A stretch of 19,419 nucleotides of DNA from Deinococcales bacterium (GCA_043778225.1 JAYWGM010000067.1:1-19419), one strand, 5' to 3'. Positions 185-19,419 are shown, counted from the stretch's first letter. Notes: generated by a model from the sequence alone, not told the origin. Translations and numbers: made by a program.

Positions 185-263
185 GCCATGATGATACTAC
201 ACGTAGAACTATTTGACAACAATGAGGTCATCATGCCCCTCACTTGGCGCTTATGCTCGAGAA

Positions 264-1016
264 GTGAAACACCTCGTTTGGGCGTTGTTCTTTTTGCATC
301 TGCTGGTGCAACCAGTCTACGCGCTTTTACCACCGAATCTCGAGCTCACTGGAACACTTTTAATTGTGGCAAGCAGTACAACTTTTGCATTTGCACACCT
401 CTGGGTTACTCGAGGTCTAAAACCAGCCATTACTTTGTTGTTGCTGTGCTTTTTTGTGGCTGGTGGACTCGAGATTTTAAGTGTACACACTGGTTTTCCG
501 TTTGGTATTTATACTTACGGCTCACAACTGGGTTTTGCGGTGCTGGGTGTGCCACTTCTTGTGCCGCTCTGCTGGCAAATGATGGCGCACAATGCCGCCA
601 CACTGGCGCGGCTTGCTAATCCCAAAGCGGCGGTGCTGATTGCCTCCGGCGCACTGGTGGCTTGGGATGTCTACCTCGACCCACAAATGGTGCGCGGCGG
701 GTACTGGACTTGGCAACGAAATTCTGGTGCGTTTACCTATGTTGGCATTCCGCTCGAGAATTATGCTGGCTGGTTTTTAACGGCGCTGATTATTTTTAGT
801 TTGTACTGGAAACTGACCAAGCCACAGCCATTCTCGAGTTTAACGCTTTTTGAAGCCTTACCAATTCTGTCTTTTTTGTGGACTTGGTTTGGCAGCGCCT
901 TGGTCAACATTGTTTGGTGGGGACAGCCAATTGTTGGCGTGGCGGGGTTTTTTTGCATGGGATTATTTGCCATTCCAGCCATTCGCCGTTGGCTCGAGCT
1001 TAAAAGGACTTTTTAG
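264..1016 (+). CDS. cruF: Carotenoid biosynthesis membrane protein, CruF-type carotenoid 1,2-hydratase
   Basis: Multi-TM protein with motifs E..SVHTGFPFGIYTYG, GVPLLVPLCW, WDVYLDP, YWTW and GIPLENYAGW. Start moved to GTG 264 because TATGCT (252-257) lies 6 nt upstream. Confidence 0.85.
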   Translation: MKHLVWALFFLHLLVQPVYALLPPNLELTGTLLIVASSTTFAFAHLWVTRGLKPAITLLLLCFFVAGGLEILSVHTGFPFGIYTYGSQLGFAVLGVPLLVPLCWQMMAHNAATLARLANPKAAVLIASGALVAWDVYLDPQMVRGGYWTWQRNSGAFTYVGIPLENYAGWFLTALIIFSLYWKLTKPQPFSSLTLFEALPILSFLWTWFGSALVNIVWWGQPIVGVAGFFCMGLFAIPAIRRWLELKRTF

Positions 1017-1028
1017 TACGGTAGAATC

Positions 1029-1068
1029 GCAACCGTATGTTTGCTTATATCGCTAAACATACGGTTGC
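1029..1068. repeat. 14-bp perfect inverted repeat downstream of cruF (REP-like or atypical terminator)
   Basis: GCAACCGTATGTTT (1029-1042) / AAACATACGGTTGC (1055-1068). GTAG at 1021; no U-tract. Confidence 0.6.
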
Positions 1069-1091
1069 CCAGATGATCCAGGTTATTTTAC

Positions 1092-1131
1092 TAGACATTT
1101 CTTAGTCATATTGATATATTACATACCAATA
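1092..1131 (+). promoter_or_regulatory. Sigma70-type promoter with overlapping imperfect palindrome (candidate operator)
   Basis: TAGACA (1092-1097), 17-bp spacer, TATATT (1115-1120) with TGn extension. Palindrome TATTGATAT-N5-ATACCAATA (1109-1131) covers the -10 box and the start region. Confidence 0.55.
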
Positions 1132-2249
1132 TGACCGACTCTCAAAGCCTTCTCGAGCAACTGATTGCGATTGATAGTGTCAATCCAAGTCTTGTGCCAA
1201 ATGGCGCTGGCGAAACCAAGATTGCTTTGTTTGTGCAAAACTGGCTCGAGACCAATGGCTTCACCACCCACTGGATCGAGCAAACTGCTGGTCGCCCGAG
1301 CGTGGTTGGCATTGCCAAAGGCACTGGCGGCGGGCGCAGCCTGATGCTCAATGGGCATTTGGACACCGTAACAACAGCGGGGTACGAAGGCAATCCGCTC
1401 GAGCCTCGAATTGAAAACGGCAAAATGTACGGACGAGGCAGCTATGACATGAAAAGCGGCGTGGCTGCCATGTTGGTCGCAGCGGCTCGAGCCAGAGTTT
1501 GGGGTTTGCGCGGCGATATTCTCGTTGCTTGTGTGAGCGATGAAGAAGACTCGAGCATTGGCACAGAAGAAGTTCTGCGTTCGTTTACTGCCAATGCTGG
1601 TATTGTCTGTGAACCCACCGAACTCGAGCTTGTGACGGCGCATAAAGGTTTTGTTTGGGCTACCATGACCACCCACGGCGTAGCAGCCCACGGCTCGAGA
1701 CCACATTTGGGGGTGGATGCGATTGCTAAAATGGGGCGGGTTTTGATTGAACTCGAGGCATTGGACAAACGATTGCGCTCGAGTTCACCACATCCAATTC
1801 TTGGAACAGGCAGTATTCATGCCAGCATTATCAGTGGCGGCGAGGAACGCTCGAGTTACCCAGCAAGTTGTACTCTCGAGCTTGAACGGCGCACGATTCC
1901 TTCTGAAAATACCAGCACCTTAGAAGCCGAAATTAAGGCAATACTCGAGACGTGCCAAAAAGCCGACCCAAACTTCAAAGCCAGTTACTCAATTGGTCTC
2001 GAGCGTCACCCACTCGAGACTCCAGCAGATGCAAAAATTCTCGAGATTTTACAGCGCACAACAGGCGCTAAAATTTCGGGCGCAAGTTACTGGGCAGATG
2101 CCGCACTGATGCAAGCGGCGGGAATAGACACGGTTATGTATGGCGTGATTGGGGCTGGCGCTCATGCCAGTACAGAATGCGTAGATTTAGCCAGCCTCGA
2201 GACACTGACGGATAATTTATTTGAAACAATAAAGGAGTTCTGCTCGTGA
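1131..2249 (+). CDS. M20 family metallo-deacylase (ArgE/DapE-like)
   Basis: Motifs LNGHLDTV, GRGSYDMKSG, DEE, EPT, AHGSRP..G.DAI and C-terminal GAH...E. Confidence 0.92.
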   Translation: MTDSQSLLEQLIAIDSVNPSLVPNGAGETKIALFVQNWLETNGFTTHWIEQTAGRPSVVGIAKGTGGGRSLMLNGHLDTVTTAGYEGNPLEPRIENGKMYGRGSYDMKSGVAAMLVAAARARVWGLRGDILVACVSDEEDSSIGTEEVLRSFTANAGIVCEPTELELVTAHKGFVWATMTTHGVAAHGSRPHLGVDAIAKMGRVLIELEALDKRLRSSSPHPILGTGSIHASIISGGEERSSYPASCTLELERRTIPSENTSTLEAEIKAILETCQKADPNFKASYSIGLERHPLETPADAKILEILQRTTGAKISGASYWADAALMQAAGIDTVMYGVIGAGAHASTECVDLASLETLTDNLFETIKEFCS

Positions 2250-2980
2250 GTATCACAATTGCGGCTTTCCAAATGCCCTTTGCAACTGCCAACCGAGCTA
2301 AGAATCTGGAGTTGGTACTTGAAAGATTGCAATGGGCAGAGATTCGGCAGGTAGAATTGGTGGTTTTCCCAGAGTGTTTTTTAACCGGGTACTTTACGAA
2401 TTTGATTGATGCTAAAGCTGCTGCATTGAACATAGAAAGCTCAGAATTCCAAATGGTGTTACAGCAACTCGAGCCATTCAAAAGTACAATTGTGCTTGGT
2501 CTAATCGAAACCGACGGTATAAATTTCTATAATACGGCTGTTGTCATCTTAAATGGAACATTACTAGGCAAATACAGAAAAACCCATCCGAATGAAAAAT
2601 GTTTTGTAGCAGGTAACGAATACCCTGTTTTTGCAGTTGCGAACTTTCAATTTGGCATCAACATTTGTGCGGATGCCAATTTCCCAGAAGCAGCCTATCG
2701 AGTTGCTGAGGCAGGCGCGAATATCATTGTTTATCCTCTTTATAATGCTTTGCCTGAGGATATTGCGATTCGTTGGAGAGAAAAAAGCCCTGAGAACCTG
2801 CGCCTTCGGGCGATTGAAACGGGTTGCTACATTATTTCTGCTGATGTTATTGGGCATGACCACTCGAGCCTAAGCTATGGATGTACACAAGTTTTTAGTC
2901 CATCAGGTGAACTAATGAGTGCAGTTTCAGAATTTGAAATAGGAGTTGCTATGACAATCATTTCTAGGGAGAAATTATGA
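2246..2980 (+). CDS. Carbon-nitrogen hydrolase (nitrilase superfamily)
   Basis: Glu-Lys-Cys triad motifs VFPE, YRKTH and ICAD.NFPE. GTG start overlaps the upstream TGA (GTGA). Confidence 0.9.
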   Translation: MSITIAAFQMPFATANRAKNLELVLERLQWAEIRQVELVVFPECFLTGYFTNLIDAKAAALNIESSEFQMVLQQLEPFKSTIVLGLIETDGINFYNTAVVILNGTLLGKYRKTHPNEKCFVAGNEYPVFAVANFQFGINICADANFPEAAYRVAEAGANIIVYPLYNALPEDIAIRWREKSPENLRLRAIETGCYIISADVIGHDHSSLSYGCTQVFSPSGELMSAVSEFEIGVAMTIISREKL

Positions 2981-3918
2981 ATCATCGTTTAAGCCTCGAG
3001 TCAATAAAATGCGCCATGCAGACCATTCCAGCAGAATTCCTAAGCAGCCCTCAGTACGAATCTGAAGCCTTGAATGCTGTACTGGGTTCTCGAGTGACGG
3101 TCAAAATCGAAACACTCAATCCAATTCGCAGTTTTAAGGGTCGGGGTGCGGCTCATTTTGTCTCGAGTCTCGAGGTAGGAACAAAACTTGTTTGTGGAAG
3201 CGCTGGAAATTTTGGTCAAGCCATGGCATATGCAAGCCGCGCCAAAGGAATTGACCTGACCGTGTTTGCCAGTGTCAATGCCAATCCGCTGAAACTCGAG
3301 CGAATGCGGGCTTTAGGAGCAACAGTTATTTTGCAAGGACAGGATTTTGACGCAGCGAAACTCGAAGCAAAAAAATGGGCGGTCTTAAACAACGCCTACA
3401 TGGTCGAGGACGGTCTCGAGCCACTTATTTCTGAGGGGGCTGGCACAATCGGACTCGAGTTACTGCAAGGCAACGAATTTGATGCGGTGCTGATTCCACT
3501 TGGCAATGGGGCGCTCTTAAATGGCGTGGCACGGTATATCAAAGCCAACTCGAGCGCCAAAGTGTGGGCGATTTGTGCGGCTGGAGCGCCAAGTATGCTC
3601 GAGTCTTGGCAGACTGGAAAAATTGTTCGCCATGAAAGTGTGGATACCATCGCCGATGGGATTGGGGTACGCGAACCGATTCTCGAGGCGGTGCAGGACA
3701 TGAACGGCATTGTGGATAATGGCTTGTTGGTCTCGGACGAGGGTATTCTAAAAGCCATGAGGTTGCTGCATCAGCACCTTGGCTTGGTGGTTGAACCTTC
3801 TGGCGCGGTTGGGATTGCGGCTTTGCTCGAGCATCCAGAGCAATTTGTCGGTTCTCGAGTGGCGACGATTATTTGTGGTGGAAATTTAACGATTGATCAA
3901 ATGCGAATGTGGCTTTAA
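2977..3918 (+). CDS. PLP-dependent serine/threonine dehydratase-like enzyme (fold type II)
   Basis: SFKGRG (PLP lysine), SAGNFGQ, TIADG, VEPSGAVG and CGGN. ATGA overlap with the upstream gene; no ACT domain. Confidence 0.9.
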   Translation: MNHRLSLESIKCAMQTIPAEFLSSPQYESEALNAVLGSRVTVKIETLNPIRSFKGRGAAHFVSSLEVGTKLVCGSAGNFGQAMAYASRAKGIDLTVFASVNANPLKLERMRALGATVILQGQDFDAAKLEAKKWAVLNNAYMVEDGLEPLISEGAGTIGLELLQGNEFDAVLIPLGNGALLNGVARYIKANSSAKVWAICAAGAPSMLESWQTGKIVRHESVDTIADGIGVREPILEAVQDMNGIVDNGLLVSDEGILKAMRLLHQHLGLVVEPSGAVGIAALLEHPEQFVGSRVATIICGGNLTIDQMRMWL

Positions 3919-4412
3919 TCGGCTGGGGTGAGTGCGATAATCCATTCGGCTTGGTCTGGGTAAACCCCAAGAAAAAAGGCTCTCGGTTGGTCAATATAAT
4001 CTTCGTACTCAAAGCCCGGCGCAACCGTACAACCCAAAAGCGCCCAAGCTCCGCCAGCCACCAGCCTCGAGCCTTGCCAGACATCGGCTGGCGCAAGCAC
4101 TTGTGGGCGTTCGCCACGGGCTAAATCTTTACCAATCAAAATATGTTGACTTGAGCCATCTGGAAATAATTGCAACATTTCTACGCTGTCGCCAGCATAA
4201 TGATGAAAAATTTCGTCACCGCAGAGTTTATGCAGTCTCGAGCAGATTTCTGGGGTCAGCAAATAATAAATCGCGGTACTTTCGAGCCTTGGGTTGGGGT
4301 GGGTCTCGAGTTTTGGCAGATAGCGGCTCGAGCGGTAAGTCTCGAGGAAAAAACCGCCTTCACGCGGATGGGGTTCTAAGCTAAGAATGGCAATCACCTC
4401 AGTGGCAGTCAT
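3915..4412 (-). CDS. Cupin-domain protein (DUF985/Cupin_5 type)
   Basis: L.PHP.EGGF..ETYRS, TAIYYLL, H....DEIFHHY.G, PQ...P...WQGS and GCTVAPGFEYED. Start revised to ATG 4412 (MTATEVI), with TATTAT 6 nt upstream. Confidence 0.88.
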   Translation of the reverse strand: MTATEVIAILSLEPHPREGGFFLETYRSSRYLPKLETHPNPRLESTAIYYLLTPEICSRLHKLCGDEIFHHYAGDSVEMLQLFPDGSSQHILIGKDLARGERPQVLAPADVWQGSRLVAGGAWALLGCTVAPGFEYEDYIDQPRAFFLGVYPDQAEWIIALTPAD

Positions 4413-4430
4413 GGTGGCATAATACCGAGT
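4413..4430. promoter_or_regulatory. Bidirectional overlapping -10 elements for two divergent leaderless genes
   Basis: Plus strand: TGn-CATAAT (4418-4423), 7 nt before ATG 4431. Minus strand: TATTAT (4424-4419), 6 nt before ATG 4412. Confidence 0.7.
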
Positions 4431-5675
4431 ATGAAAGCAGTCATGTTGGGTGCTGGCAATCGCGGCTTTGATGTTTACGGGCGTTATGCGCTCGAACATC
4501 CAAACGAATTAAAGTTTGTGGCGGTGGCAGACCGCAACCCCGAAAAACTCGAGCGTTTTGGTATAGCCCATGGCATTCCAGTCGAACACCAGTTTTTAAG
4601 TTGGCAAGATGCCCTAAGCACCGCCGATGTGGTCTTTGTGTGCTTGCCAGATGCGCTGCACCAAGAAGTAGCGGTGGCTGCCCTGAGCGCCAACAAGCAC
4701 CTGTTGCTCGAGAAACCAGCTGCTACCACACTCGAGGGAACGAAACGAGTTTTAGCGGCAGCGCAGGCTTCGAGTGGAGTCTTGATGCTTGGTTATGTCT
4801 TACGTTACACCGCTTTTTTCCAAAAAGTCCAAGAAATTCTGCACAGCGGTACAATTGGCGATTTAATCAATCTTGATTGGCGCGAGAACGTCTCGAGTAC
4901 CCATTACAGCCACAGTTATGTGCGTGGCAATTGGCGACGCGAAGACACCAGCAGCCCAATGATTTTGGCAAAATGTTCGCACGACCTCGATTTAATTTCT
5001 TGGCTGACCAATACCCAAGTGGCTACAGTATCCAGTTTTGCTGGCTTAAAACACTTTCGGCTCGAGAATGCCCCGCAAAACGCGCCCGAACGCTGCTTGG
5101 ATGGTTGCCCGCATGAATCATGCGAATTTGATGCTGCCAAAATTTACTTACAAGAACCCGTGTCCTTTCCAGCCACGATCATCAGTGCTGACCCCAGTCT
5201 GGCTGCCCGAAAAAAAGCCCTCGAGACCAGCGATTATGGGCGTTGTGTCTACCGCATGGACAACAATGTGGTTGACCATCAGGTTGCCAGTTTTTTACTC
5301 AAAAACGGGGCGAGTGGCACATTTGCAATGCACGGACACAGCAGCCAAGAAGGGCGTTCACTGCGTTTTGACGGCACAAAAGCCACACTGCGCGGCGTTT
5401 TCAAAGCCAGTTTACAAGAACTGCGCTTAGAGCCACACAATTACCAAACCAGTTTTGGCGGCGGGGGACAAACCATATCCTTTGACCATAAGGCTGGACA
5501 CGGTGGCGGCGACGCTGGGCTAACCAAAGCGTTTCTCGAGGCAGTACAGCTTGGGGTGCGCCAAGACCCAAGCCAATACTTTGAAAGCCACCTTTTGGCA
5601 TTTGCGCTCGAGCAAGCACGGCACAGCCATCAAGTTGTAGACCTTATTCAATTCAAAGGCGAAGTGGGCTTTTGA
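4431..5675 (+). CDS. Gfo/Idh/MocA family NAD(P)-dependent oxidoreductase
   Basis: GAGNRG Rossmann motif, LLEKP, AKCSHDLD and GHGGGD. Confidence 0.92.
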   Translation: MKAVMLGAGNRGFDVYGRYALEHPNELKFVAVADRNPEKLERFGIAHGIPVEHQFLSWQDALSTADVVFVCLPDALHQEVAVAALSANKHLLLEKPAATTLEGTKRVLAAAQASSGVLMLGYVLRYTAFFQKVQEILHSGTIGDLINLDWRENVSSTHYSHSYVRGNWRREDTSSPMILAKCSHDLDLISWLTNTQVATVSSFAGLKHFRLENAPQNAPERCLDGCPHESCEFDAAKIYLQEPVSFPATIISADPSLAARKKALETSDYGRCVYRMDNNVVDHQVASFLLKNGASGTFAMHGHSSQEGRSLRFDGTKATLRGVFKASLQELRLEPHNYQTSFGGGGQTISFDHKAGHGGGDAGLTKAFLEAVQLGVRQDPSQYFESHLLAFALEQARHSHQVVDLIQFKGEVGF

Positions 5676-5744
5676 ACTGGTATCTGCTCAAGATTTATCA
5701 AGCCACTTGAGAATCTTTAAGATTTTTGCCGTATGCTGTTGTCT

Positions 5745-6587
5745 ATGCGGTTTGTGATTGTTTCTGGACGCAGTGGCGCGGGTAAGACCACAGCCCTGCA
5801 AGCCCTCGAGGAATTTGGTTATTTTGTGACCGATAACTTGCCGCCAATGCTCTGGACGGCGCTTCTGACTGGTTGCTCGGCACGTGGCTTGGAGCAGGTG
5901 GCGGTAGTCACCGATTCCCGAACCCGATTTTTTTTAGCCGACCTCGAGATGGCGTTTGCGATTGTCCAAACCTCCATTCAGCCCGAACTGGTTTTTTTAG
6001 ATGCCGACGATCACGTGTTGGTGCGGCGCTATGGACTGACACGGCGCAGTCATCCACTTGGCGAACCAACTTTGCTGGGCGATTTACGCGAAGAACACCG
6101 TGTACTCGAGGGTTTGCGCGAACGAGCCGATACGGTGATAGACACCTCCAACCTGAGTGCAAGAGATTTGATCGAACGCTTGCGGAATCTGTATGGCGAC
6201 TCGAGCCAGAAGTTTATCGTCACGCTGTTCAGTTTTGGTTTTAAGCATGGCGCACCGACCGATGCCGATTTGGTGATTGATGCTCGCAGTCTACCCAATC
6301 CTTATTGGGATCAAACCTTAAAAGAGCGCTCTGGACTCGAGCCAGACGTAGCACAGCATATTTTCACCGCCGATGGCACGGCTTTTTATAACGAGTTGCG
6401 CGAATTCATCAGGCTCAATCTCGAGCGAGCCAAAGTTGCCAAGCGTTCAAATTATAGTGTCGCGGTTGGTTGCACTGGTGGCTTTCACCGCAGTGTGGCA
6501 GTGGTCGAGAGTCTGGCGCGGGATTTCTCGAGCTATGCGGTTCAGACCGACCACCGCGATTTGGCACGTGGCGAGGGCGGCGCATGA
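5745..6587 (+). CDS. rapZ: RNase adapter / nucleotide-binding protein RapZ (YvcJ family)
   Basis: Walker A GRSGAGKT, DNLP, RRSHP, SFGFKHG.P.DAD.V.D.R.LPNP and GCTGG.HRSV. Start at ATG 5745 with TATGCT (5732-5737) 7 nt upstream. Confidence 0.95.
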   Translation: MRFVIVSGRSGAGKTTALQALEEFGYFVTDNLPPMLWTALLTGCSARGLEQVAVVTDSRTRFFLADLEMAFAIVQTSIQPELVFLDADDHVLVRRYGLTRRSHPLGEPTLLGDLREEHRVLEGLRERADTVIDTSNLSARDLIERLRNLYGDSSQKFIVTLFSFGFKHGAPTDADLVIDARSLPNPYWDQTLKERSGLEPDVAQHIFTADGTAFYNELREFIRLNLERAKVAKRSNYSVAVGCTGGFHRSVAVVESLARDFSSYAVQTDHRDLARGEGGA

Positions 6588-7894: not shown

Positions 7895-7902
7895 ACTTTT
7901 TC

Positions 7903-7967: not shown

Positions 7968-7974
7968 CTGCCCT

Positions 7975-8727
7975 ATGCAACGTTCAGAATTGGTGCAGTG
8001 GCTAGACTCCTACCTCGAGACCGCAAAAATCCCAGATGGCAGCCTCAATGGCTTACAATTCGAGGGCAGCCAAACGGTATCTCGAGTTGCCTGTGCGGTG
8101 GACTCGAGCCTTGCCACGATCGAAGCGGCGGTCGAGTCTGGGGCGGATTTTTTAATTGTCCACCATGGTTGGTTCTGGAAAAATGTTCAGCCGATTACTG
8201 GACCTTTTGCTAAGCGGGTCAAGACTGCCGCCGCCGCCAATCTAAACCTTTATGCTTCGCATTTGCCTTTGGATGCTCACCCAGAAGTTGGCAACAACAT
8301 TCAGATGGCTAAATTTTTGTCCTTAAAAAACATCGAACCATTTGGACAGGATAAAAACCTCAGCCTTGGTTTTATGGGGCAGCTACCTGTGCCGCTCAGT
8401 TTACAAGACCTTGCCGATAGCGTCCAGAAAATTACCGGCGAAGTCTGTCTGGTGCATGGTGGCGGTCAAGCCATGGTCTCGAGCATTGGGATTGTTTCGG
8501 GTGGCGCGGCTGGTTTTGTTGACCAAGCAGCGCTGGCTGGTTTGGACTGTTTTATCACTGGCGAACCAAGCCACGCTCATTTTGCCGATGCCTTTGAGTA
8601 CGGCATCAATGCAATTTTTTGTGGACACTACGAATCCGAAGTCTTTGGGGTTAAAGCCCTTGCCATTAAGCTCGAGGATACCTTCAATTTGCCTTGGCAA
8701 TTTCTGCACTTGCCAACAGGGCTTTAA
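7975..8727 (+). CDS. Nif3-like dinuclear metal-centre protein (YbgI family)
   Basis: D.S.NGLQ.EG, VHHG.FW, SHLPLDAHPEVGNN, FITGE and GHY.SE.FG. Start revised to ATG 7975. Confidence 0.93.
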   Translation: MQRSELVQWLDSYLETAKIPDGSLNGLQFEGSQTVSRVACAVDSSLATIEAAVESGADFLIVHHGWFWKNVQPITGPFAKRVKTAAAANLNLYASHLPLDAHPEVGNNIQMAKFLSLKNIEPFGQDKNLSLGFMGQLPVPLSLQDLADSVQKITGEVCLVHGGGQAMVSSIGIVSGGAAGFVDQAALAGLDCFITGEPSHAHFADAFEYGINAIFCGHYESEVFGVKALAIKLEDTFNLPWQFLHLPTGL

Positions 8728-9362
8728 CCTCTTGGCACTTGATGGTGCGTTCCACAGCGCGGCTCATAGCTTTCGGCAGCCCCAACCATAATCACGGGGT
8801 CATCGTAGCGGGCGGGCATTCCATTGACCAGACGCTGGGTGCGGGTGGCGGGTGCGCCACAAATCGGACAAATCGCAGTCAGTTTTTCGACGTGTTCGGC
8901 TCGAGCCAGTAACTCGGGCATGATGCCAAATGGCTCGCCACGAAAATCGAGGTCTAAACCACCACAAATGACCCGCACGCCAGCCCGAGCCAACTCGAGC
9001 GCCAAAGCAACCACACCGTCATCCATAAACTGGGCTTCATCGAACGCCACCACGTTGGGCAGCTTGATTTCGTGGGCATCGGGGTTCTCGAGTCCAAACA
9101 AGGCTGGTTGTGGGGCTAAACCGAGCGCCACACGAATCTCGAGCGTGCTTTGAATCGCTTGGGCTTCGACCGTTCGCCCAGCGTGGCTGGCAAGTGCCGT
9201 GAGGTGATAACGGTCGTCGAGGACTGGCTTAAAAACCCGCACTTGCTGTTTGGCAATCAGGGCGCGGGTCACACGGCGAATCAGTTCTTCGGACTTGCCG
9301 CTAAACATCGGTCCGCAGACCACTTCGATATGACCACTGGGGAAAAAAGGCTCGAGAGGCAT
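8724..9362 (-). CDS. tdk: Thymidine kinase
   Basis: GPMFSGKSEELIRR, DEAQF, GLDLDFRGEPFG, KLTAIC..CG and YEPRC..H. Start at ATG 9362 preferred (TAGTAT 8 nt upstream); 9380 is the alternative. Confidence 0.96.
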   Translation of the reverse strand: MPLEPFFPSGHIEVVCGPMFSGKSEELIRRVTRALIAKQQVRVFKPVLDDRYHLTALASHAGRTVEAQAIQSTLEIRVALGLAPQPALFGLENPDAHEIKLPNVVAFDEAQFMDDGVVALALELARAGVRVICGGLDLDFRGEPFGIMPELLARAEHVEKLTAICPICGAPATRTQRLVNGMPARYDDPVIMVGAAESYEPRCGTHHQVPRG

Positions 9363-9384
9363 GAACTCGAATACTAACATTTTA

Positions 9385-10247: not shown

Positions 10248-11558
10248 TTAAGCCGCGTTGACCAAAGTCATTTCGTCGCGTCCAATGTTCACACCAAGAC
10301 TCGAGAAGCGCTCAATCAGGCGCTCATAGCCACGGTTAAGGTACTGTACCCCTTCAATTCGGCTTTCGCCTTGGGCGGCGGCAGCAGCAATCACCAAGGC
10401 TGCGCCAGCCCGAATATCGGCGGCTTTGACGGGCGCACCAGTCAGGCTCGAGCCTTCGATTAAAATGCTGTGGTCAAGCACTTCGGTTTTTGCGCCAAGG
10501 CGGTTTAACTCGCCACTGTAACCAAAACGGGTGGTGTACACAGGGTCGGTAATACGGCTATGCCCCGAAACGGTCGCCAAATAAGCTGCCATCATCGGTT
10601 GTAAATCGGTTGGGAAGCCCGGGAAAGACGAAACCGTCACCGAGACTGGTTTAAGAATCATGTCTCGCGCATCAAGGTGAATCGTGGTCTGGTCTAACTC
10701 GAGAATTTTGACCCCGCTTTCGGTCAGTTTAGCGGTCAATGCCCGCAAGTGTTCGGTGTTGGCATGGGTCAAGGTCAGTTCGCCTCGGGTGGCAGCCGCC
10801 GCCAATAAATATGTGCCAGCCTCGAGTCGGTCCGGGATGACACGGTACTCGCCACCGTGCAGCGCAGCAACCCCTTCAATCTCGAGCGTGTGCGTGCCAA
10901 TACCCAAAATTTTTGCGCCAAGGTGATTTAAGAAATTACAGAGGTCAATCACATCGGTGTCTATGCTGGCGTTCTCGAGGCGGACAATGCCAGTTCCTAA
11001 AACGGCAGCGCAAACGGCATTTTGTGTTCCACCAACGGTCAGCATATCAAAAACAAAACGCCCAGAAAGCGGACGGTCACGCACCGCGATAATATCGCCG
11101 TTGTTGTCCACAACGGTCACACCCATCGCCTTTAGGGCTTTGAGGTGCTGGTCTATCGGGCGCACCCCAAAAGTGCAGCCGCCGGGCTGTGGCACTCGAG
11201 CTTCGCCAACTCGGGCAAGCAAAGGACCTAAAACATTAAAGCTGGCTCGCATTTTACTGACCAAGCTGTACGGGGCTTCAACACTGGTGATTTCTGGGGC
11301 GTGAAGTGTCAGCGTATGTTCGCCTTGCCATGCAAATTTGACCCCAAGGCTTGAGACAATCGCCAAGATTACTTCGACATCGGATAAACGCGGAATGCCA
11401 TGCAGGGTAACTGGTTCGGTAAACAAAATACTGGCAGCCAAAATTGGCAGGGCTGCATTTTTACTTGGATTGACAGGTAAAGTTCCCGAAATTGGGTTGC
11501 CCCCACGAATAAGAAGCGGTGCGCTGGACATGGTTTTTGATTCAAACAGTGGTGGCAT
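10248..11558 (-). CDS. murA: UDP-N-acetylglucosamine 1-carboxyvinyltransferase
   Basis: SKNAALP, KMRAS, PGGC.FG.RPIDQH (catalytic Cys present), PDRLEAGTY, PGFPTDLQ, DIRAGAAL and RGYE. GGGAG RBS upstream of 11558. Confidence 0.97.
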   Translation of the reverse strand: MPPLFESKTMSSAPLLIRGGNPISGTLPVNPSKNAALPILAASILFTEPVTLHGIPRLSDVEVILAIVSSLGVKFAWQGEHTLTLHAPEITSVEAPYSLVSKMRASFNVLGPLLARVGEARVPQPGGCTFGVRPIDQHLKALKAMGVTVVDNNGDIIAVRDRPLSGRFVFDMLTVGGTQNAVCAAVLGTGIVRLENASIDTDVIDLCNFLNHLGAKILGIGTHTLEIEGVAALHGGEYRVIPDRLEAGTYLLAAAATRGELTLTHANTEHLRALTAKLTESGVKILELDQTTIHLDARDMILKPVSVTVSSFPGFPTDLQPMMAAYLATVSGHSRITDPVYTTRFGYSGELNRLGAKTEVLDHSILIEGSSLTGAPVKAADIRAGAALVIAAAAAQGESRIEGVQYLNRGYERLIERFSSLGVNIGRDEMTLVNAA

Positions 11559-11625
11559 CGACGTACTCCCTTTTTCCCATTATGGCGGGACACCGTAGTG
11601 TTTGGTACACTATACCCAAATCTCG

Positions 11626-11730
11626 AGTATCAGATGAGTATTATACACATCAACAGTAGAATACGAAAGTGGCTTGCTATTAGCCCTATACTCTTAGCTA
11701 GGTGAACACACAAGTATCACACCAGCATCA
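11626..11730 (+). promoter_or_regulatory. Two pairs of AGYATYA direct repeats with 11-bp period (candidate operators)
   Basis: AGTATCA 11626 / AGTATTA 11637 and AGTATCA 11713 / AGCATCA 11724, in the divergent murA-RHH intergenic region. Confidence 0.4.
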
Positions 11731-11756
11731 TTAAACTCGTGCTAACATAGCGCACA

Positions 11757-11981
11757 ATGCCAAAGAAAGAAAAAAAGCGTCTTCAAGTGGTTATCTCCGA
11801 CGAACAAGACGCACTCCTGACCAAAGCTGCCTATGAACTGAGCAGCCCCGAGCGCCTTGTCTCTAAATCCGAGGTGGTGCGCTTGGCAATCGAAAAAATC
11901 AGTGCCGAACTCGAGAACTCCAGCGCCCTCGAGCCGCTCTTAAAGCAATTGCTGGCTGAAGAAAAAGATGATGAAGACTAG
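11757..11981 (+). CDS. Small ribbon-helix-helix-like DNA-binding protein
   Basis: KRLQVVIS (beta strand), DEQDALLTKAAYEL (helix), SKSEVVRLAIEKI (helix B signature) and an acidic tail. TGn-TAACAT (11743-11748) is 8 nt upstream. Confidence 0.75.
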   Translation: MPKKEKKRLQVVISDEQDALLTKAAYELSSPERLVSKSEVVRLAIEKISAELENSSALEPLLKQLLAEEKDDED

Positions 11982-12384
11982 GAGGAAGGAGGAAGGAGGA
12001 AAGAGGAAAAACCCAATTTTTCTTTTCTCGCTTCTCTTTCCTCTGCTCTGTTCTTGCAGTTTTACTTTTATTCCGTTCGCACCACGCCCACTCGAGATTC
12101 CACCAGCCATCATTATTGGGTCTGAAAGCGCCTTGAGCCGTTCGCAGGACTCGGTCATCCTCAAAGTCAAGTTGCTGCAAGTTCCCAACGAAGGCTACCT
12201 GAGTGCCAGTTTGTACCTCAAGTCCGAGCGCACTGAGCGCCGCATCAGCGAAGACAGCCAACTGATTACCGCCAAATCTAAAAGTCTCGAGTTTCGTTTT
12301 CCAGATGCCAAAATTGGCAGTTATCGCGCTTATTTATTTTGGCAGGGCAGCATTGTTCGCCAATTTGAGTTTGTTCTCGAGTAG
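11968..12384 (+). CDS. Putative lipoprotein with beta-rich mature domain
   Basis: Basic n-region, hydrophobic h-region and LLCSC lipobox (Cys at 12055). Start at 11968 or 11971 overlaps the RHH gene end. Confidence 0.7.
   Translation: MMKTRRKEEGGKRKNPIFLFSLLFPLLCSCSFTFIPFAPRPLEIPPAIIIGSESALSRSQDSVILKVKLLQVPNEGYLSASLYLKSERTERRISEDSQLITAKSKSLEFRFPDAKIGSYRAYLFWQGSIVRQFEFVLE
11981..12043. repeat. Heptamer arrays (GGAGGAA x3 + AGAGGAA, then TTTTCTC/GCTTCTC/TTTCCTC)
   Basis: Purine heptamers 11981-12008 and roughly complementary pyrimidine heptamers 12023-12043. Confidence 0.75.
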
Positions 12385-12404
12385 CGTTTTTACTGGTGTG
12401 CTAG

Positions 12405-14154
<1,750 letters not shown>

Positions 14155-14158
<4 letters not shown>

Positions 14159-15255
14159 AATTTCTTTTGGAAAATTCGATAGCGTTTATAGGGAATTGCC
14201 CCCAAGGCTCGCATCCCGTTGTTAATTGCCTCATTGCTCTCGAGTGTCCAACCAAATTCGCCACTGCTGTACTTTTTTTGCCCTTGCTGGAAAGTTTCGG
14301 CGTACAGCAAAGCATCTAAGCCACGTCCTTGGAAATCGTTGAGGATACCCAAAGCAATCAGCCGCATTCGGGTGTACTTAAAAAATTGCAATTTAAGCAG
14401 CCCGAATGGCAAGAGCTTACCTCCTGTACCGGGCAAGGCTTGATTTAAGTCCGGTAAAACAACACTAAACGCCACCGCTCTACCATCTATTTCGGCAATA
14501 TAGCTAATTTGTTGGTCGGCAGCTTGCCCCAGTTTATTTTTTAATTTCTTAATTTCGGCATCCGTCCACGGTACAAAACCAGCATTTTGACTCCAAGCAC
14601 TGTTATAAATGGCTTGGATATGCACCGCTTCGTCATCTAACTTCTTAAAGTTAATCGGGCGCAAAGTGACTTTTAAGTTGCGTTTGACCCGTTCTGCAAT
14701 CCGCACGATGCGTTCGGGTAAGCCTTGCTGCACCGTCATTTTCCAAGCAAAAGTGTCGTCGTATTTTTGGTAATTGGCAGCCTCAGACCAAGCAATATAC
14801 TCGAGTGGGTTGTAATTCATCATGATCGTTGGCGGGTCGTCAAAGTTTTCCATTAAAAACCCGTGCATATCATTTTGTTCGACTTTGCTCGGACCGATGA
14901 TTTTGGTCAAACCACGTGTCCGCCCCCAATTTTCGACTCGCTCGAGCAGCGCTTTGAAAATAGCGGCGTTATCGGCTTCGAGACTCGAGAATAAAACTGA
15001 ATTTTCTGAGCGAAACTTATTAAAACTTTGATCGAGAATCGCGGCGATGCGTCCAACCACTTTGTTGTTCTCGAGCGCAATAAAAAGCTCAATTTCGGCA
15101 TGGTCAAAAAAAGGATTTTGTTTGGGGTCGGTGTCAGCCCATTCTTGAATCAGTAATGGTGGAACCCAAGTTGGATGGTGACGGTATTTTTGATAAGGGT
15201 ACTCAATCCACAATTTGCGCTCGGCTCGAGTGGTGACACTTTTTATTTCGGTCAT
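14155..15255 (-). CDS. GNAT-fold acyltransferase, YghO / bacterial ceramide synthase-like family
   Basis: WVPPL, NPFF.HA...F.A.....VGRI.A..D, GP, F..PP..MM.YN...Y, YN.AW..N.GFVP, PD.NQ, FQGRG (acyl-CoA motif A) and W.LE.N. TAAATT is 6 nt upstream. Confidence 0.8.
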
Positions 15256-15331
15256 GGCTACAATTTAGCCTTTTTTCGGGGTCGGGTGCAATTTTACAAC
15301 ACAAGAGGTCAAGACATGAGTAAAATGGCGT

Positions 15332-16522
15332 ATGTTCCTATACGCATCTCGGCGAATCGTGGCAATGATTCCGATTCTATTGGCAGTCTCGATGGCTATT
15401 TTTGGCTTGATTCAATTACAACCGGGCGATTTTATCGATGAAATGCGCCTTGCCAATCCAAAGATGACTTCTGCCGATGTGGTTCGACTGCGCCGCGAAT
15501 ATGGTTTAGACCAACCGTGGTATGTGCAGTATGGCAAATGGCTCAATCGTGCAGTGCGCCTTGACTTTGGCTTGTCTCGAGAAAACGGCTATGAACCAGC
15601 TGCCAACTTTGTGTTTGAACAACGCCTTGGCAACACCATCACTTTATCGGCAACAGCTTTTTTTATAGCCCTCTTAATTGGCATCCCAATTGGTATTTAC
15701 GCAGCCGTGCGGCAGTACAGCTTACTGGATTACATCACCACTTTTTTATCGTTTGTTGGTTTTAGTGTTCCAGTCTTTTGGCTTGGCATCATGATGCTGA
15801 TTTTATTTGGTGTAACTTTTAAGATTTTCCCGATTGGCGGAATACAAAGCGAAGATGTCAGTATTTATGTAGAAAGCCCAGTCCAATTTGATGTCACGGG
15901 ACAAGTCAAAAAAATAGCTTCTCGAGACGGCAATAGCATCATTACTATTGGGGTCTACAACGATGCCTCAAAACTCGAGATTCCCAAAGAATTTACACTC
16001 CCATCTGGGATTCGCCCCGCCGTGCTGACTGGCGATTATGTCTCCCAAGGACAAAGCGTCGGGCAGGAAGTCACCGCCGAATCGTGGTGGCGCTGGCTGC
16101 TTGACCGACTGCATCATTTGGTTTTGCCTGCGGTGGCGCTCTCGATTATTTCGATTGCTGGCTGGACTCGTTTTATGCGTGCCAGTTTACTCGAGGTGAT
16201 CAATCAAGATTTTGTGCGTACCGCTCGAGCCAAGGGTTTAACCGAACGAATTGTGATTTATAAGCACGCCCTTCGCAATGCCTTAATTCCGATTGTGACG
16301 CTGGTTGGTTTGTCGATCCCCGGTATCTTAAACGGCGCAGTCCTGACCGAAACCGTATTTAATTGGCCCGGCATGGGAACAGCCCTTTTAGACAGTGTGA
16401 TTAAAAAAGATTACAACGTTGCGATGGTGATTCTAATGATGCTCAGCATTGTAACGCTCGCCGCCAACCTTTTAACCGACCTCGCTTATGCACTGGTAGA
16501 CCCACGCATTCGCTATAACTAA
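15332..16522 (+). CDS. Peptide/nickel ABC transporter permease (OppB/DppB type) with ~70-aa extramembrane insertion
   Basis: PGD, GLDQP.YVQY, HLVLP, EAA loop QDFVRTARAKGL, KHALRNAL, ETVFNWPGMG and DPRI. Confidence 0.93.
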   Translation: MFLYASRRIVAMIPILLAVSMAIFGLIQLQPGDFIDEMRLANPKMTSADVVRLRREYGLDQPWYVQYGKWLNRAVRLDFGLSRENGYEPAANFVFEQRLGNTITLSATAFFIALLIGIPIGIYAAVRQYSLLDYITTFLSFVGFSVPVFWLGIMMLILFGVTFKIFPIGGIQSEDVSIYVESPVQFDVTGQVKKIASRDGNSIITIGVYNDASKLEIPKEFTLPSGIRPAVLTGDYVSQGQSVGQEVTAESWWRWLLDRLHHLVLPAVALSIISIAGWTRFMRASLLEVINQDFVRTARAKGLTERIVIYKHALRNALIPIVTLVGLSIPGILNGAVLTETVFNWPGMGTALLDSVIKKDYNVAMVILMMLSIVTLAANLLTDLAYALVDPRIRYN

Positions 16523-16535
16523 AAAAGGAAAAATA

Positions 16536-17702
16536 ATGACAACCACCATTAAAAAAGACCAAAGTTCTGGCTCAAAAACTTGGCAGCGATTCACCAAACA
16601 CCGTGCAGCCATGATTTCTGCTGTGGTGCTGCTGTTGCTACTGCTGGTTTCGATTTTTGCGCCAATCGTCGCACCGTATGCCCCAGATAAAATAGATTCT
16701 TCAAACCTCTATTCGGCTTCCTCGAGCCTGCACTGGATGGGAACAGATGGCTTAGGACGTGATGTCTTCTCTCGAGTTTTACACGCTGGGCGGGTTTCTT
16801 TGCTTGTCGGTATTTTGGTCGCCATTCTGTCAGCCATCATTGGTGTGGTCATGGGCTTAATGGCGGGTTATTACAGTGGTATTCCGTGGTTACTTTCGGT
16901 TGGGAGTGGTAGCCATCTGTGGGCTGAGCGCAAAAATGCCGAAGGATCAAGTTTTGTCTGGCGCACGGGTGTACGTTGGCTGGTCTGGGTTGGCATTATT
17001 TTTTTCATTTTACAAATCACCAGTCAGTTTGCGGCTACTTTTGTCGGCACAAGCGCGGTACTGGCGTGGGTCGTTGGTGGTGGGCTGGCGGCGACAGCAG
17101 CTTACTTTGCTTTTTATAAGGCAATAGTCATCGACATAGATAACGCCATCTCGAGATTGATTGATGTGATGCTGAGTTTACCGAATATCCCATTTTTACT
17201 GATTTTGTCGGGTTTATTGGCAAATCCAGATGTGCCACTGGGTGATTTTTTGAATGGTATTTTTGGGCAGTCACGCTCGATTGTGCTGATTATTTTTGTG
17301 CTGACACTTTTTGGTTGGCTTGGTACGGCTCGAGTCATTCGTGGGCTGGTTTTAAGTCTGAGGCAACGCGAATTCACCGATGCGGCTCGGGCGCTTGGCT
17401 CGAGCGACTGGCGGATTATGCTGGCGCACTTGTTGCCCAACGCGATTGCACCGATTATTGTACAGGTCACGCTCGATGTTGGCAATAATATCGTTTCAGA
17501 AGCGGCACTCAGTTTTCTCGGTTTTGGGATTCAAGAACCGACCGCCTCTTGGGGCAATATGCTATCTGGGGCGCAGGAAGCCATTTTTCAAAGCCCATTC
17601 ACGGTTTTTTGGCCCGGTCTGTTTATTCTTTTAACCAGCCTGAGCATTAACTTTTTAGGCGATGGCTTACGCGATGCGCTCGACCCGCGCAGTCGGCTGT
17701 AG
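16536..17702 (+). CDS. Peptide/nickel ABC transporter permease (OppC/DppC type) with extra TM hairpin
   Basis: HWMGTDGLGRD..SR, EAA loop REFTDAARALG, HLLPN, EAALSFLGFG, SWG.ML and GDGLRDALDPR. AAGGA RBS. Confidence 0.93.
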   Translation: MTTTIKKDQSSGSKTWQRFTKHRAAMISAVVLLLLLLVSIFAPIVAPYAPDKIDSSNLYSASSSLHWMGTDGLGRDVFSRVLHAGRVSLLVGILVAILSAIIGVVMGLMAGYYSGIPWLLSVGSGSHLWAERKNAEGSSFVWRTGVRWLVWVGIIFFILQITSQFAATFVGTSAVLAWVVGGGLAATAAYFAFYKAIVIDIDNAISRLIDVMLSLPNIPFLLILSGLLANPDVPLGDFLNGIFGQSRSIVLIIFVLTLFGWLGTARVIRGLVLSLRQREFTDAARALGSSDWRIMLAHLLPNAIAPIIVQVTLDVGNNIVSEAALSFLGFGIQEPTASWGNMLSGAQEAIFQSPFTVFWPGLFILLTSLSINFLGDGLRDALDPRSRL

Positions 17703-18071
17703 AATTGCCTACTCAATATCCCAACAGGTGCTGGAGCAAGACCCCAAGCTGTGGTCGTCCCACCAAGTCTCGAGAACAGTTTAATTCGGGTTACTGGTTT
17801 TAGCCCGACCGTCTCGAGTTCAGGTGATTTAACGGTGCTGACTGCGGGTACGCCAGTTTCGAGCAGCATTCCAATCAGTTATGTCTGCTCGAGTGCTGGC
17901 ACGTTTACTGGTTTTGTGAATGTGGTTTACGGCACTGGGGCAACTGATGAGGCTGGTGTGGCTATTCTCGAGAAGGTGGCTGTGTTGGTGAACGTAATTT
18001 TAGAAACCGATAAAGCCGATACTCGAGACGAAAGCACTGTGGATGTGCGAATTGACCACTACGAAATATGA
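17703..18071 (+). pseudogene. Probable fragment of a Ser/Thr/Val-rich extracellular beta-sandwich protein
   Basis: Open frame with no RBS, -10 box or signal peptide. Alternating beta pattern (IPISYVCSSAGTFTGFVNVVYG). Confidence 0.4.
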
Positions 18072-18125
18072 AATATCGAGTACAATAGATTGGGAGTTAG
18101 GTTTGCAAAAGTGCGAGGAGTTCAT

Positions 18126-18536
18126 GTGGATTATTATGAAACTTGGGAGAAAAAACCCGAACCAAAACCAAAGCCAAGCGTTTATGTGCCGTGGTACGAA
18201 TGGATTCTTGTGCCTATTTTGGTGGCTGCGCTAGTGGCGGGTTTGGCAATGTTGGTTGACCCGTTAATGAACCAAAGGCGTTTGTATCCAGAATGGTTTA
18301 TGCCTGCACCACATGATGGCAAGGGTGATTTTATTTGGTCAACCATTAACCCGTGGGTTATTGCCACGTTTTTCATGGCGGCTTTTTATATTGCAGCTTT
18401 GGTTGGGGTGATTATTGCTTGGACTCGTTCGACTTGGTTTGCTTCTTTAATGTGGTTTGGATTATTTCTTTGTCCACCTGCTGAACCAAACACCAATTCA
18501 AATTTATTGTTTACGTCGGGTGCTAGTGGTTCATAG
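18126..18536 (+). CDS. Hypothetical membrane protein (about 3 TM), 3' end interrupted by IS982
   Basis: GAGGAG RBS (18115-18120) before GTG 18126. Hydrophobic helices. The last codons (TSGASGS*) are encoded by the IS end. Confidence 0.6.
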   Translation: MDYYETWEKKPEPKPKPSVYVPWYEWILVPILVAALVAGLAMLVDPLMNQRRLYPEWFMPAPHDGKGDFIWSTINPWVIATFFMAAFYIAALVGVIIAWTRSTWFASLMWFGLFLCPPAEPNTNSNLLFTSGASGS

Positions 18537-19419
18537 CCCTAACCACAACCGAAAATTATGCCCAGCAATTTTACGGCAAACACTCGCCCGAACCGACCAG
18601 AACGAGTTTAATTGATTCAAAACAAGGAACTGCCCTCGAGTTAGGCTCGAAAAAGCTGTCTCAATTAGCTTTCTAGCTGAGTCCATCAAACTGCACCAAG
18701 GCATTGGGTTTAATGCGTTTTTCTTAGGTGGCGTAAAAATACCGCAACCAACATACGCCTTATCCCCCAATACACGCTCTAAATCATCCTCATTATCATT
18801 GAGTAGCATTTGACAGACTTTTGGGTCAGCATGATTAGCAGGCACAATAGCGAACCGACAGAACATCATGGCATTGTTAATCACAGCGTGTAGCTTAAAA
18901 CCAAAGACAGCCCCCATCGTTCCATAGCCTTTAGCTGCTTCGGTCATGGCTCGAGGTTGAGAACGGCGTTTATAGCGACAAATAGGCAATGGTTTACTGT
19001 CCGTAGCATAGGTTGTGTCGTCTTGGGCTTGATTAGCTAAACAAAGTGCAAAATCAGCCCAGATACCCTCGAGATTACGAATAACACGATGGTAGCGTGT
19101 GACATCGGGTAAAATAGGAAATAAGTGTTTTAAGTAATACTTGACATAAATGAACCAATACTCGCTGTGTGGTTCTCGTAATATCTCACCAAGCAAGGCA
19201 ATCGTCATCAATTCTGAGTAACTGGCTTTTTGGTTGCTTGCCTTTGGCAGGGTAAACCGACCATTTGCCAGACTGACCTTGATATAGTCGTCTACTACTG
19301 TGTAAATAGCGGTGAATAGGTCTTCAATGGTATACTTTTCGAGGAGGCTACGGATTCTCATAGACTCGTATCCTCCACTATTTTTGGTTATTTGCCTACT
19401 TATCCACTAGCATCCGACG
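18513..19419 (-). mobile_element. IS982-family insertion sequence (~0.9 kb), reaching the window end
   Basis: Terminal inverted repeats CGTCGGGTGCTAGTGG (18514-18529) and CCACTAGCATCCGACG (19404-19419), 15/16 match, flanking a single transposase. Confidence 0.9.
18531..19361 (-). CDS. IS982-family DDE transposase
   Basis: IY..VDD, SE..TIAL, TDSKPLPIC, GFKLH, GDKAY and R..IET.FS.L (D, D, E). GGAGG RBS. Confidence 0.92.
   Translation of the reverse strand: MRIRSLLEKYTIEDLFTAIYTVVDDYIKVSLANGRFTLPKASNQKASYSELMTIALLGEILREPHSEYWFIYVKYYLKHLFPILPDVTRYHRVIRNLEGIWADFALCLANQAQDDTTYATDSKPLPICRYKRRSQPRAMTEAAKGYGTMGAVFGFKLHAVINNAMMFCRFAIVPANHADPKVCQMLLNDNEDDLERVLGDKAYVGCGIFTPPKKNALNPMPWCSLMDSARKLIETAFSSLTRGQFLVLNQLNSFWSVRASVCRKIAGHNFRLWLGL

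Follow-up and report, generated by a model that had tools for sequence, protein, structure and literature searches.

Why should one palindromic hexamer, CTCGAG, be written again and again along a stretch of bacterial DNA, inside genes and between them? The question is raised by a 19,419-bp contig of a Deinococcales bacterium (GCA_043778225.1, JAYWGM010000067.1:1-19419; the whole of this stretch is called the window below), for which an initial annotation had put the number of CTCGAG copies at about 128 and had proposed a highly iterated palindrome (HIP) of the kind found in cyanobacteria. An exact string search returns exactly 128 copies (6.6 per kb), the first at position 256 and the last at 19068-19073, and the longest stretch free of the word measures 607 bp (18028-18634). 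Two hundred dinucleotide-preserving shuffles of the window give an expectation of 2.79 copies (s.d. 1.6, maximum 9), none of the 200 reached 128, and the observed number is 46 times the expectation. Relative to the open reading frames (ORFs) called in the window, phases 0, 1 and 2 hold 63, 20 and 25 copies respectively, and the other 20 fall outside called ORFs.

The answer that the data give with great confidence is that CTCGAG is a strict word, indifferent to its flanks, which is kept by a strong and directional force at the level of DNA; this force is independent of reading frame, favours the exact word only, works slowly, is heritable and changes amino acids. The window is contig C67 of its source assembly (G000; 107 contigs, 4,029,277 bp, GC content 48.7 per cent, 89 per cent complete), which holds 24,877 copies, or 6.17 per kb (6,174 per Mb, roughly one per 160 bp), 26.7 times the zero-order composition expectation. 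CTCGAG is the top hexamer of this genome by three-fold, the runners-up are pieces of CTCGAG itself (GCTCGA, 8,682 copies), and all contigs longer than 3 kb carry 4-10.6 copies per kb. The bases that flank the copies are near random, and the unit is thus the bare hexamer. Most other palindromic hexamers are avoided in the same genome, 53 of the 64 standing below half of expectation and 34 below a tenth (GGCGCC has 3 copies, GACGTC 1 and GAGCTC 24), which implies a long history of many restriction systems.

An excess of this size might be a by-product of codon usage, of proteins rich in Leu-Glu, of a bias in the tetramer TCGA or of faulty assembly, and this family of explanations can for practical purposes be dismissed. 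In its favour, phase 0, the Leu-Glu phase, holds 60 per cent of the genic copies, and a maximal-order Markov model returns an observed/expected ratio (O/E) of only 1.16; that figure was discarded as circular, because 89 per cent of CTCGA and of TCGAG lie within the motif. The 3,462 genes found by a crude ORF caller (87.7 per cent coding) contain 22,011 copies, divided 13,140, 4,382 and 4,489 among phases 0, 1 and 2. Shuffling synonymous codons within each gene, which keeps protein and codon usage, leaves 2,350 +/- 42 copies (10 replicates), and shuffling codon order leaves 1,042 +/- 33. Away from the sites, CTC makes up 9 per cent of Leu codons and GAG 23.5 per cent of Glu codons, and the density in non-coding DNA (5.85 per kb) is close to that in coding DNA (6.23 per kb). 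The enrichment thus survives shuffles that preserve amino acids and codons, all three phases are used and the spacers are rich, so that codon or dipeptide bias gives no explanation, as the initial annotation had argued; the placing of the motif inside conserved genes as well as between genes was likewise borne out, in the window and in the genome. Nor does TCGA explain the hexamer: of its 36,442 copies in the genome, 24,877 (68 per cent) sit inside CTCGAG where ∼2,160 are calculated with random flanks, which indicates that the hexamer drives the tetramer, and outside the motif TCGA stands slightly below its composition prediction. An artefact of assembly is refuted by contigs of the same strain from two sequencing runs, which show 0 differences on long contigs, and by the presence of the motif throughout the genome and in all 19 genomes of the family.

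The size of the force can be read from the share of opportunities that are taken up in G000. In phase 0, CTCGAG encodes 69 per cent of 19,009 Leu-Glu dipeptides (log-odds shifted by 4.6); in phase 1 the word is used at 56 per cent of 7,763 [SPTA]-R-[VADEG] opportunities (log-odds 3.9), and in phase 2 at 43 per cent of 10,527 opportunities (log-odds 3.6). The spacers give a ln(O/E) of 3.5-4.1. Because a force of similar size is found in every frame and outside genes, it must act on DNA and not on translation or peptides. Around the starts and stops of genes the profile is flat at ∼6-7 per kb, apart from a drop to 4.7 per kb over the first 30 nt of genes and slightly raised values near stops (8.3 and 7.5 versus ∼6.3 per kb), so that the word serves as a signal neither for promoters nor for terminators. 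The lowest density belongs to the contig of ribosomal-protein genes (3.7 per kb), because conserved proteins have fewer Leu-Glu dipeptides, yet 32 of the 42 found there use the motif. The pull is no weaker under high expression, and it overrides codon preference in the ribosomal-protein genes.

The same pull is visible in the composition of proteins. Leu-Glu has an O/E of 2.32 in the proteins of G000, versus 0.96 for Glu-Leu, and Ser-Ser, a phase-2 product, stands at 1.59; among 20 samples taken from the order's other genera, the O/E of Leu-Glu ranges from 0.45 to 1.69. When prolyl-tRNA synthetase (ProRS) sequences are aligned, the motif occupies 10 positions in at least 6 of 16 family members, and at ∼6 of these 10 the residues of the family are rare or absent in 20 outgroup orthologues, with changes such as Leu-Gly or Leu-Asp to Leu-Glu, Phe or Tyr to Leu, Lys to Arg and Asn to Ser. 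ProRS is one gene, and it illustrates the genome-wide dipeptide figures rather than proving them.

Turnover between close relatives shows how exact the favoured word is. Fourteen genes of the window, aligned across the eight congeners, gave 3,088 ordered comparisons of sites; in this set four-fold sites are only 51 per cent identical, and proteins 87 per cent. CTCGAG is retained in 71, 61 and 72 per cent of cases in phases 0, 1 and 2, versus 29 per cent for all other hexamers in the same genes. Among the phase-0 sites, 1,142 stay sites in the congener, 246 keep Leu-Glu but with other codons and 229 have a changed peptide; from the other side, 246 of 671 Leu-Glu dipeptides written without the motif are CTCGAG in the other congener. 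Variants with one mismatch fare worst, only 12.9 per cent of 1,390 being identical in the congener as against 29 per cent of unrelated hexamers and 69 per cent of motif copies, and 17 per cent of them are the full CTCGAG there (33 per cent for transitions at the outer positions). Since these variants form the least stable class of all, nothing short of the full word is favoured, and near-cognates are states passed through; so exacting a pull suggests a reader with the stringency of a type II restriction or modification enzyme. Genome-wide, the transition neighbours of CTCGAG number 1,043-1,375 copies each, versus 132-903 for the transversion neighbours.

The spacing of sites in G000 bears on whether copies act together. 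Close pairs are scarce, with a genome-wide pair correlation of 0.2-0.5 at 8-17 bp. No pair occurs at a spacing of 6, because abutting copies would create the avoided GAGCTC, and the closest spacing that occurs is 7 (123 pairs). Counts are mildly under-dispersed in windows of 250-500 bp (Fano factor 0.82-0.88) and over-dispersed at 2 kb and above (1.2-1.56). With another site at a distance of 6-11 bp, the motif encodes 29-32 per cent of Leu-Glu dipeptides, versus 76-78 per cent when the distance is 60-399 bp; this interference was replicated in another genus (0.20 versus 0.56 in genome G033), and a control codon choice is roughly flat. In coding DNA the pair deficit lasts to ∼60 bp (0.24, 0.41, 0.68, 0.83, 0.89), whereas spacers give a pair correlation of 0.50 for sites 8-11 bp apart, rising to 0.91 at 12-17 bp and to at least 1.0 at greater distances. 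Repulsion between sites by a protein footprint of 20-60 bp is ruled out by this non-coding DNA, in which the deficit is gone by 12-17 bp. With the deficit of the spacers confined to 8-11 bp, the sites must be almost independent at the level of DNA, and the longer interference is a cost paid in coding regions, which may come from mRNA hairpins between self-complementary copies or from clustered rare codons.

DNA that appears to be imported is bare of the word. The largest motif-free stretches of G000 measure 2.4-5.6 kb (G000:C40:7693-11073; C41:55252-59552; C70:76689-79170; C11:31446-33837; C44:57429-63066), and some genes write 0 of 6-13 Leu-Glu dipeptides as the motif. Their cargo is of a defence type (a GmrSD-HEPN-methylase islet, a NACHT NTPase, a KAP/PifA-like NTPase, and a PDC-M60A protein with response-regulator proteins) or of a polysaccharide type (a glycosyltransferase/EpsG block). 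The bareness of these islands indicates that the word accumulates slowly on resident DNA and is not stamped onto new DNA. A scan for tight CTCGAG triplets also returned viral contigs: among 80 loci of at least 4 kb (from at least 126 stretches), none near 49 per cent GC has a host-like density (maximum 2.0 per kb), and the motif-rich viral loci among those listed have 60-70 per cent GC. One of them, L384 (IMGVR_UViG_3300029258_003487; 67.5 per cent GC), carries 71 CTCGAG in 10 kb (7 per kb, ∼20 times its composition expectation) and 27 GAGCTC; its composition is unrelated to that of the motif-rich family.

How widely the word is shared depends on where the lineage sits. Ribosomal protein L2 of the genome matches PDB entries 1nkw, 1nwx, 5dm6 and 7a0r at 456 bits, a next set at 439 bits and all others at 342 bits or less; we take the first four to be the 50S subunit of Deinococcus radiodurans and the 439-bit entries to be Thermus 70S ribosomes. 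The closest PDB entry to ProRS is 1h4q. On these assignments the matches confirm a lineage within Deinococcota, nearer to Deinococcus than to Thermus. All 19 genomes of its family in the collection (five genera) carry 4.3-6.8 CTCGAG per kb, and 20 spaced samples from the complete chromosome of the relative G033 carry 4.0-5.9 per kb. A quick, single-gene tree of ProRS places this motif-rich family as sister (SH-aLRT 100) to family f3, in which the word is depleted to 0.01-0.3 per kb; the 36 genomes sampled from f3, 35 belonging to genus g7, have between 37 and 1,193 copies each. Several genera of families f2 and f5 carry 1.5-3.4 per kb. Because GC-rich codon usage favours CTC and GAG, strengths in these outgroups were corrected for codon usage; each genome contributed a single sample of 5-20 kb, in which ORFs were called crudely. 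The corrected log-odds are ∼3.5-4.0 in three low-GC genera of f2 (g31, g23 and g27), 1.9-2.2 in genera g13, g22 and g24 of f5, 0.7-1.5 in f4 and the other f2 genera, and ∼0 or negative in g9, g29 and f3. Outside the family, then, the word is graded across the order and not all-or-none.

A search for the machinery returned mostly negatives, with positive controls that matched in control genomes except for the XhoI family. The initial annotation had looked to methylation-coupled repair and to an orphan methylase resembling XhoI/PaeR7I or TaqI, and gene content offers no support for either. The XhoI-family nuclease (PF04555) is found in 0 of the 19 family genomes and 0 of 36 in f3, which avoids CTCGAG without it; it occurs in 5 of 23 f4 genomes and in 1 of 37 f2 genomes, that one copy (in G025) being broken by stop codons. 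In two f4 genomes (L466, G097:C417; L467, G015:C1) the nuclease adjoins a PF01555 methylase and a DeoR-type regulator, and the two methylases are 79 per cent identical; to this XhoI-linked methylase, G000 and the PF01555 loci of five other genera offer only generic matches, at 28 per cent identity or less over the domain. G000 (at its 89 per cent completeness) yielded no Vsr (PF03852), no MutH, no RecC (PF04257) and no AddAB/RecB-type nuclease domain of class PDDEXK_1 (PF12705).

G000 does have at least 20 DNA methyltransferase genes, many of them with a native-like motif content of 3-7 per kb. Searches in five main Pfam classes recovered no methyltransferase orthogroup common to the family: for PF07669, PF00145 and PF01555 in six genomes of five genera, the best orthogroup reached 4 of 6, and genome G010 has no C5 methyltransferase; for PF02384 and PF02086 in all 19 genomes, the best D12 orthogroup reached 8 of 19, with a conserved neighbouring gene in 6 of the 8. 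Three candidates for a determinant shared by the family were rejected on this ground, namely the ∼500-aa Eco57I-type proteins, which are not orthologous, the D12 orthogroup just mentioned, and a Type IIG/ISP-like restriction-methylase fusion (N6_Mtase and Type_ISP_C; L286:1117-4335, minus strand, on G000:C1). The last is the most native-looking enzyme of the genome, and with 19 sites its gene is saturated, 15 of 15 Leu-Glu dipeptides being written CTCGAG; true orthologues are present in 4 of the 19 genomes, and it also occurs in the motif-avoiding f3 and in f4. The uptake proteins ComEC and DprA are each found in 18 of 19 family genomes. A DprA gene lies ∼1.5 kb from the gene of a D12-class adenine methyltransferase (389 aa) at G000:C89:21497-24825; the one similar enzyme seen elsewhere (396 aa) is that of G007, whose DprA gene sits on a different contig, and the adjacency may be chance.

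There is some reason to think that the word marks ownership. The reading we favour, at a probability of about 0.35, is that CTCGAG is a watermark of the lineage's own DNA. A putative reader, a vertically inherited protein with the strictness of a restriction enzyme, would recognize CTCGAG as double-stranded DNA and would take part in the uptake of DNA, in recombination or in repair; DNA molecules or strands that bear the word would be preferentially taken up, kept or used as template, and copies would accumulate by selection together with molecular drive, as proposed for cyanobacterial HIP1, while methylation may or may not belong to the reading step. The frame-independence at the level of DNA, the strict word, its maintenance, the independence of sites, the bent proteins, the bare islands, the inheritance, the presence of ComEC and DprA and the analogy with HIP1 are all consistent with such a watermark. 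Several points weigh on the other side. Known uptake sequences are 9-12 nt long, not palindromic, present at ∼1 per kb and tolerant of variants, whereas this word is 6 nt long, palindromic, strict and present at 6 per kb. Cultured members of Deinococcus-like and Thermus-like lineages are naturally competent; f3 and g9, which from PDB matches we take to be Deinococcus-like and Thermus-like respectively, show no enrichment or avoid the word, and competence alone therefore fails to predict the motif. ComEC and DprA are near-universal (both also matched in the Escherichia coli controls) and so lend weak support, and no reader protein was identified in these searches. The analogy with HIP1 depends on methylation, and the family has no conserved methyltransferase among the classes searched. 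The present data do not separate selection from a function-less repair bias, and the sequencing runs allow no fresh gains or losses of sites to be read: X1 and X2 yielded one strain, identical on long contigs (0 differences), together with short contigs from other species, and X3 yielded almost none of it. A bolder version, which we put forward more tentatively still, is that the mark is free of orientation and read without a dedicated methylase by a strict core protein, and would be old in Deinococcales, graded across the order and avoided in the Deinococcus-like sister family.

The same strictness would suit a methyltransferase of CTCGAG, or of the inner TCGA, that marks sites for the choice of repair strand, for replication control or for gene regulation, as in Elhai's proposal for HIPs. 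Strict recognition of a 6-bp palindrome is typical of type II enzymes, G000 is well supplied with native-like methyltransferase genes, and pairs of XhoI-family nuclease and PF01555 methylase circulate in the order; in addition, excerpts of published work report that HIPs track cognate methyltransferases in cyanobacteria (PMC4390886) and that CTCGAG and TCGA are among the methylated motifs of one hot-spring host-virus group, whose phylum they do not name (bioRxiv 10.64898/2026.06.24.734251). A methylation-centred system nonetheless appears unlikely when set against the want of any family-wide orthogroup, the genome without a C5 enzyme, the merely generic relatives of the XhoI-linked methylase and the failure to find MutH or Vsr in G000, although sequence gives no specificities and different enzymes of the same specificity could possibly serve in each genome. 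An explanation without any benefit to the cell, which we also consider improbable but not negligible, is molecular drive by an enzyme that follows the logic of Vsr, acts at all six positions and repairs heteroduplexes towards CTCGAG. Drive agrees with a force that is per-site and additive at the level of DNA and equal in coding and non-coding DNA, with specificity for the exact word and instability of one-off variants (as expected if they are converted), with the abundance of transition neighbours and with slow accumulation in imported DNA, and nucleases of the PD-(D/E)XK class often escape profile searches. A bias at a single position is arithmetically impossible, however, given that CTTGAG and CTCAAG together number 2,762 and the other neighbours ∼11,000 against 24,877 sites; we know of no enzyme in nature that repairs at every position of a word, and no Vsr was found in G000. 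Altered residues, and rare codons used in genes for ribosomal proteins, also imply a cost that a neutral process would have had to overcome across five genera. The conservation of HIP1 has been argued, in an excerpt of PMC5861425, to favour selection; our own conservation data do not separate selection from drive.

Two further functions start from the distribution of sites. The ∼25,000 copies could be where a sequence-specific nucleoid protein binds so as to coat, compact or protect the lineage's own chromosome, and chromosome structure has been proposed as a function of HIP1 (PMC5861425, in part). The even coverage of contigs, of the G033 samples and of gene boundaries and the bareness of foreign islands would suit such an architecture. 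It is made doubtful by the loss of the 20-60 bp exclusion from non-coding DNA beyond 12 bp and by the over-dispersion of counts at 2 kb and above; nucleoid proteins, moreover, are usually loose in specificity, and here one-off variants are not retained. A Chi-like signal, by which a helicase-nuclease of the RecBCD or AddAB type would guard the ends of its own DNA, has been suggested for HIP1 (in part of bioRxiv 10.1101/2024.09.10.611283), and a palindrome would work from either direction. For classical enzymes this role is largely refuted by the absence of RecC and of the PDDEXK_1 nuclease domain from G000, where the controls matched, and as a whole it is very improbable, Chi words being asymmetric and far less enriched.

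Among known systems the closest is HIP1 itself (GCGATCGC), and the proposal of a HIP-like system outside cyanobacteria stands, with a 26.7-fold genome-wide excess (a HIP being over-represented at least ∼15-fold), with enrichment in all frames and in spacers and with sites conserved above control words. Cyanobacterial HIPs are further described as periodic at 10-90 kb. As far as excerpts of PMC4390886 and PMC5861425 describe it, HIP1 is likewise a hyper-abundant exact palindrome in all three frames and in spacers, shared by a large clade, long without an explained function, conserved above control words (here 0.61-0.72 versus 0.29) and scarce in imported DNA. The present word differs in having six letters rather than eight, in its phylum and in its density (6,174 per Mb versus 300-2,700 per Mb for HIPs; PMC4390886), and its one-off variants are unstable (12.9 versus 29 per cent) where those of HIP1 are reported to be conserved (PMC5861425). 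It also differs in that no cognate methyltransferase co-extensive with the family was found; specificities being unread, methylation is not thereby excluded. HIP1 is reported to increase transformation in a way that depends on methylation (bioRxiv 10.1101/2024.09.10.611283, in part) and to correlate with competence-pilus genes and not significantly with its methylases (PMC13756078, in part). A palindromic hexamer in the role of a HIP is already described in GGCGCC of Calothrix PCC 7103 (Elhai 2015; PMC4390886, in part), an alternate HIP of a single strain or narrow lineage inside the HIP1-bearing phylum, which Elhai linked to methyltransferases. CTCGAG, by contrast, spans a whole family with an order-wide gradient, and GGCGCC has only its 3 copies in G000.

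Other systems resemble this one in part. CCWGG in E. coli, with Dcm and Vsr, is a case in which biased repair makes a methylase's target word more frequent, as molecular drive would; that effect is modest and concerns one position, whereas here no Vsr was found in G000, G010 lacks a C5 methylase and the excess is far above the pool of two neighbours. XhoI and PaeR7I restriction-modification systems have the same target, and family f4 of this order contains pairs of XhoI-family nuclease and PF01555 methylase. A restriction target is as a rule avoided in genomes, and avoidance is what f3 shows, whereas the motif-rich family has the word without the nuclease. The uptake signal sequences (USS) of Pasteurellaceae and the DNA uptake sequences (DUS) of Neisseriaceae differ in being 9-12 nt long, asymmetric and present at ∼1 per kb, against a 6-nt palindrome at 6.2 per kb, and are often paired in terminators, where CTCGAG rises only slightly near stops. 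They share with it an over-represented short word of own DNA, thought to spread by drive through transformation, and an effect on the proteome (PMC2817400, in part), and ComEC and DprA are present here. In the literature, bioRxiv supplements lying outside the search, no description of CTCGAG as an iterated palindrome or of any case in Deinococcota was found; the passages of a 2026 preprint that list CTCGAG among methylated motifs in hot-spring communities make no tie to Deinococcota (bioRxiv 10.64898/2026.06.24.734251). New here are the order-wide gradient, the interference specific to coding DNA, the instability of one-off variants and the negative survey of enzymes.

The features of the window are collected in Table 1. 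Of the gene names first given to it, proS and tdk were confirmed by Pfam, and 'murA' holds only as a protein of the EPSP-synthase family (PF00275); the gene at 4431-5675 is by Pfam an oxidoreductase, loci related to which (80 of them) carry at most 1.04 CTCGAG per kb. The transposase gene near the end is multi-copy by depth, and copies at 66-86 per cent identity occur in other family genomes. The 135-bp repeat has copies at G000:C21:11424-11558 and C94:101196-101330, shows a roughly ten-fold higher contig depth in the runs and, with its short inverted repeats, may be a miniature mobile element. In the window, scans for Rfam families and for tRNAs gave no matches.

Table 1. Features of the 19,419-bp window, with positions counted from its first letter
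Feature	Position	Strand	Basis or remark
Field of 128 exact CTCGAG, 6.6 per kb	256..19073	.	String search
Densest cluster, 10 copies in 423 bp, inside M20 peptidase gene (1131-2249)	1623..2045	+	String and Pfam search
CTCGAGNCTCGAG, two copies at closest spacing (7 bp), inside PALP enzyme gene	3162..3174	+	
GFO/IDH/MocA oxidoreductase	4431-5675		Best relatives in Chloroflexota, at most 46% identity
Thymidine kinase gene (tdk), 5 copies	8724..9380	-	Pfam
PF00275 (MurA/AroA-family) gene, 7 copies	10248..11558	-	Pfam; orthologues aligned
Spacer with 3 copies (11622, 11910, 11928), example of non-coding occupancy	11559..11967	.	
Prolyl-tRNA synthetase gene (proS), 6 copies	12417..13874	+	Pfam; used for tree and amino-acid-change test
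IS-type DDE transposase gene (PF13612/PF01609), 3 copies, 3.6 per kb	18531..19361	-	Poorer than surroundings
Dispersed 135-bp repeat at contig end, 0 CTCGAG	1..135	.	95-96% copies on C21 and C94

HIP1, so far known from cyanobacteria alone, has gone unexplained for about three decades, and CTCGAG offers an independent case in another phylum. With a different and shorter word, at two to twenty times the density, and with a quantitative gradient that includes an avoiding sister family, it forms a comparative system in which genes or protein variants that track the strength of the pull can be sought, and for which methylation, uptake, repair bias and architecture make different predictions. On the practical side, the word is a sensitive marker of native versus imported DNA in genomes of the family, it distorts their codon and dipeptide statistics (Leu-Glu is over-used 2.3-fold), and XhoI would cut such DNA approximately every 160 bp unless the sites are modified. 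Were CTCGAG indeed an orientation-free mark of own DNA, read by a strict core protein without a dedicated methylase, HIP-type words would be a general and repeatedly evolved bacterial way to tell kin from foreign DNA, and the motif-rich family would be their most extreme and most tractable natural example.

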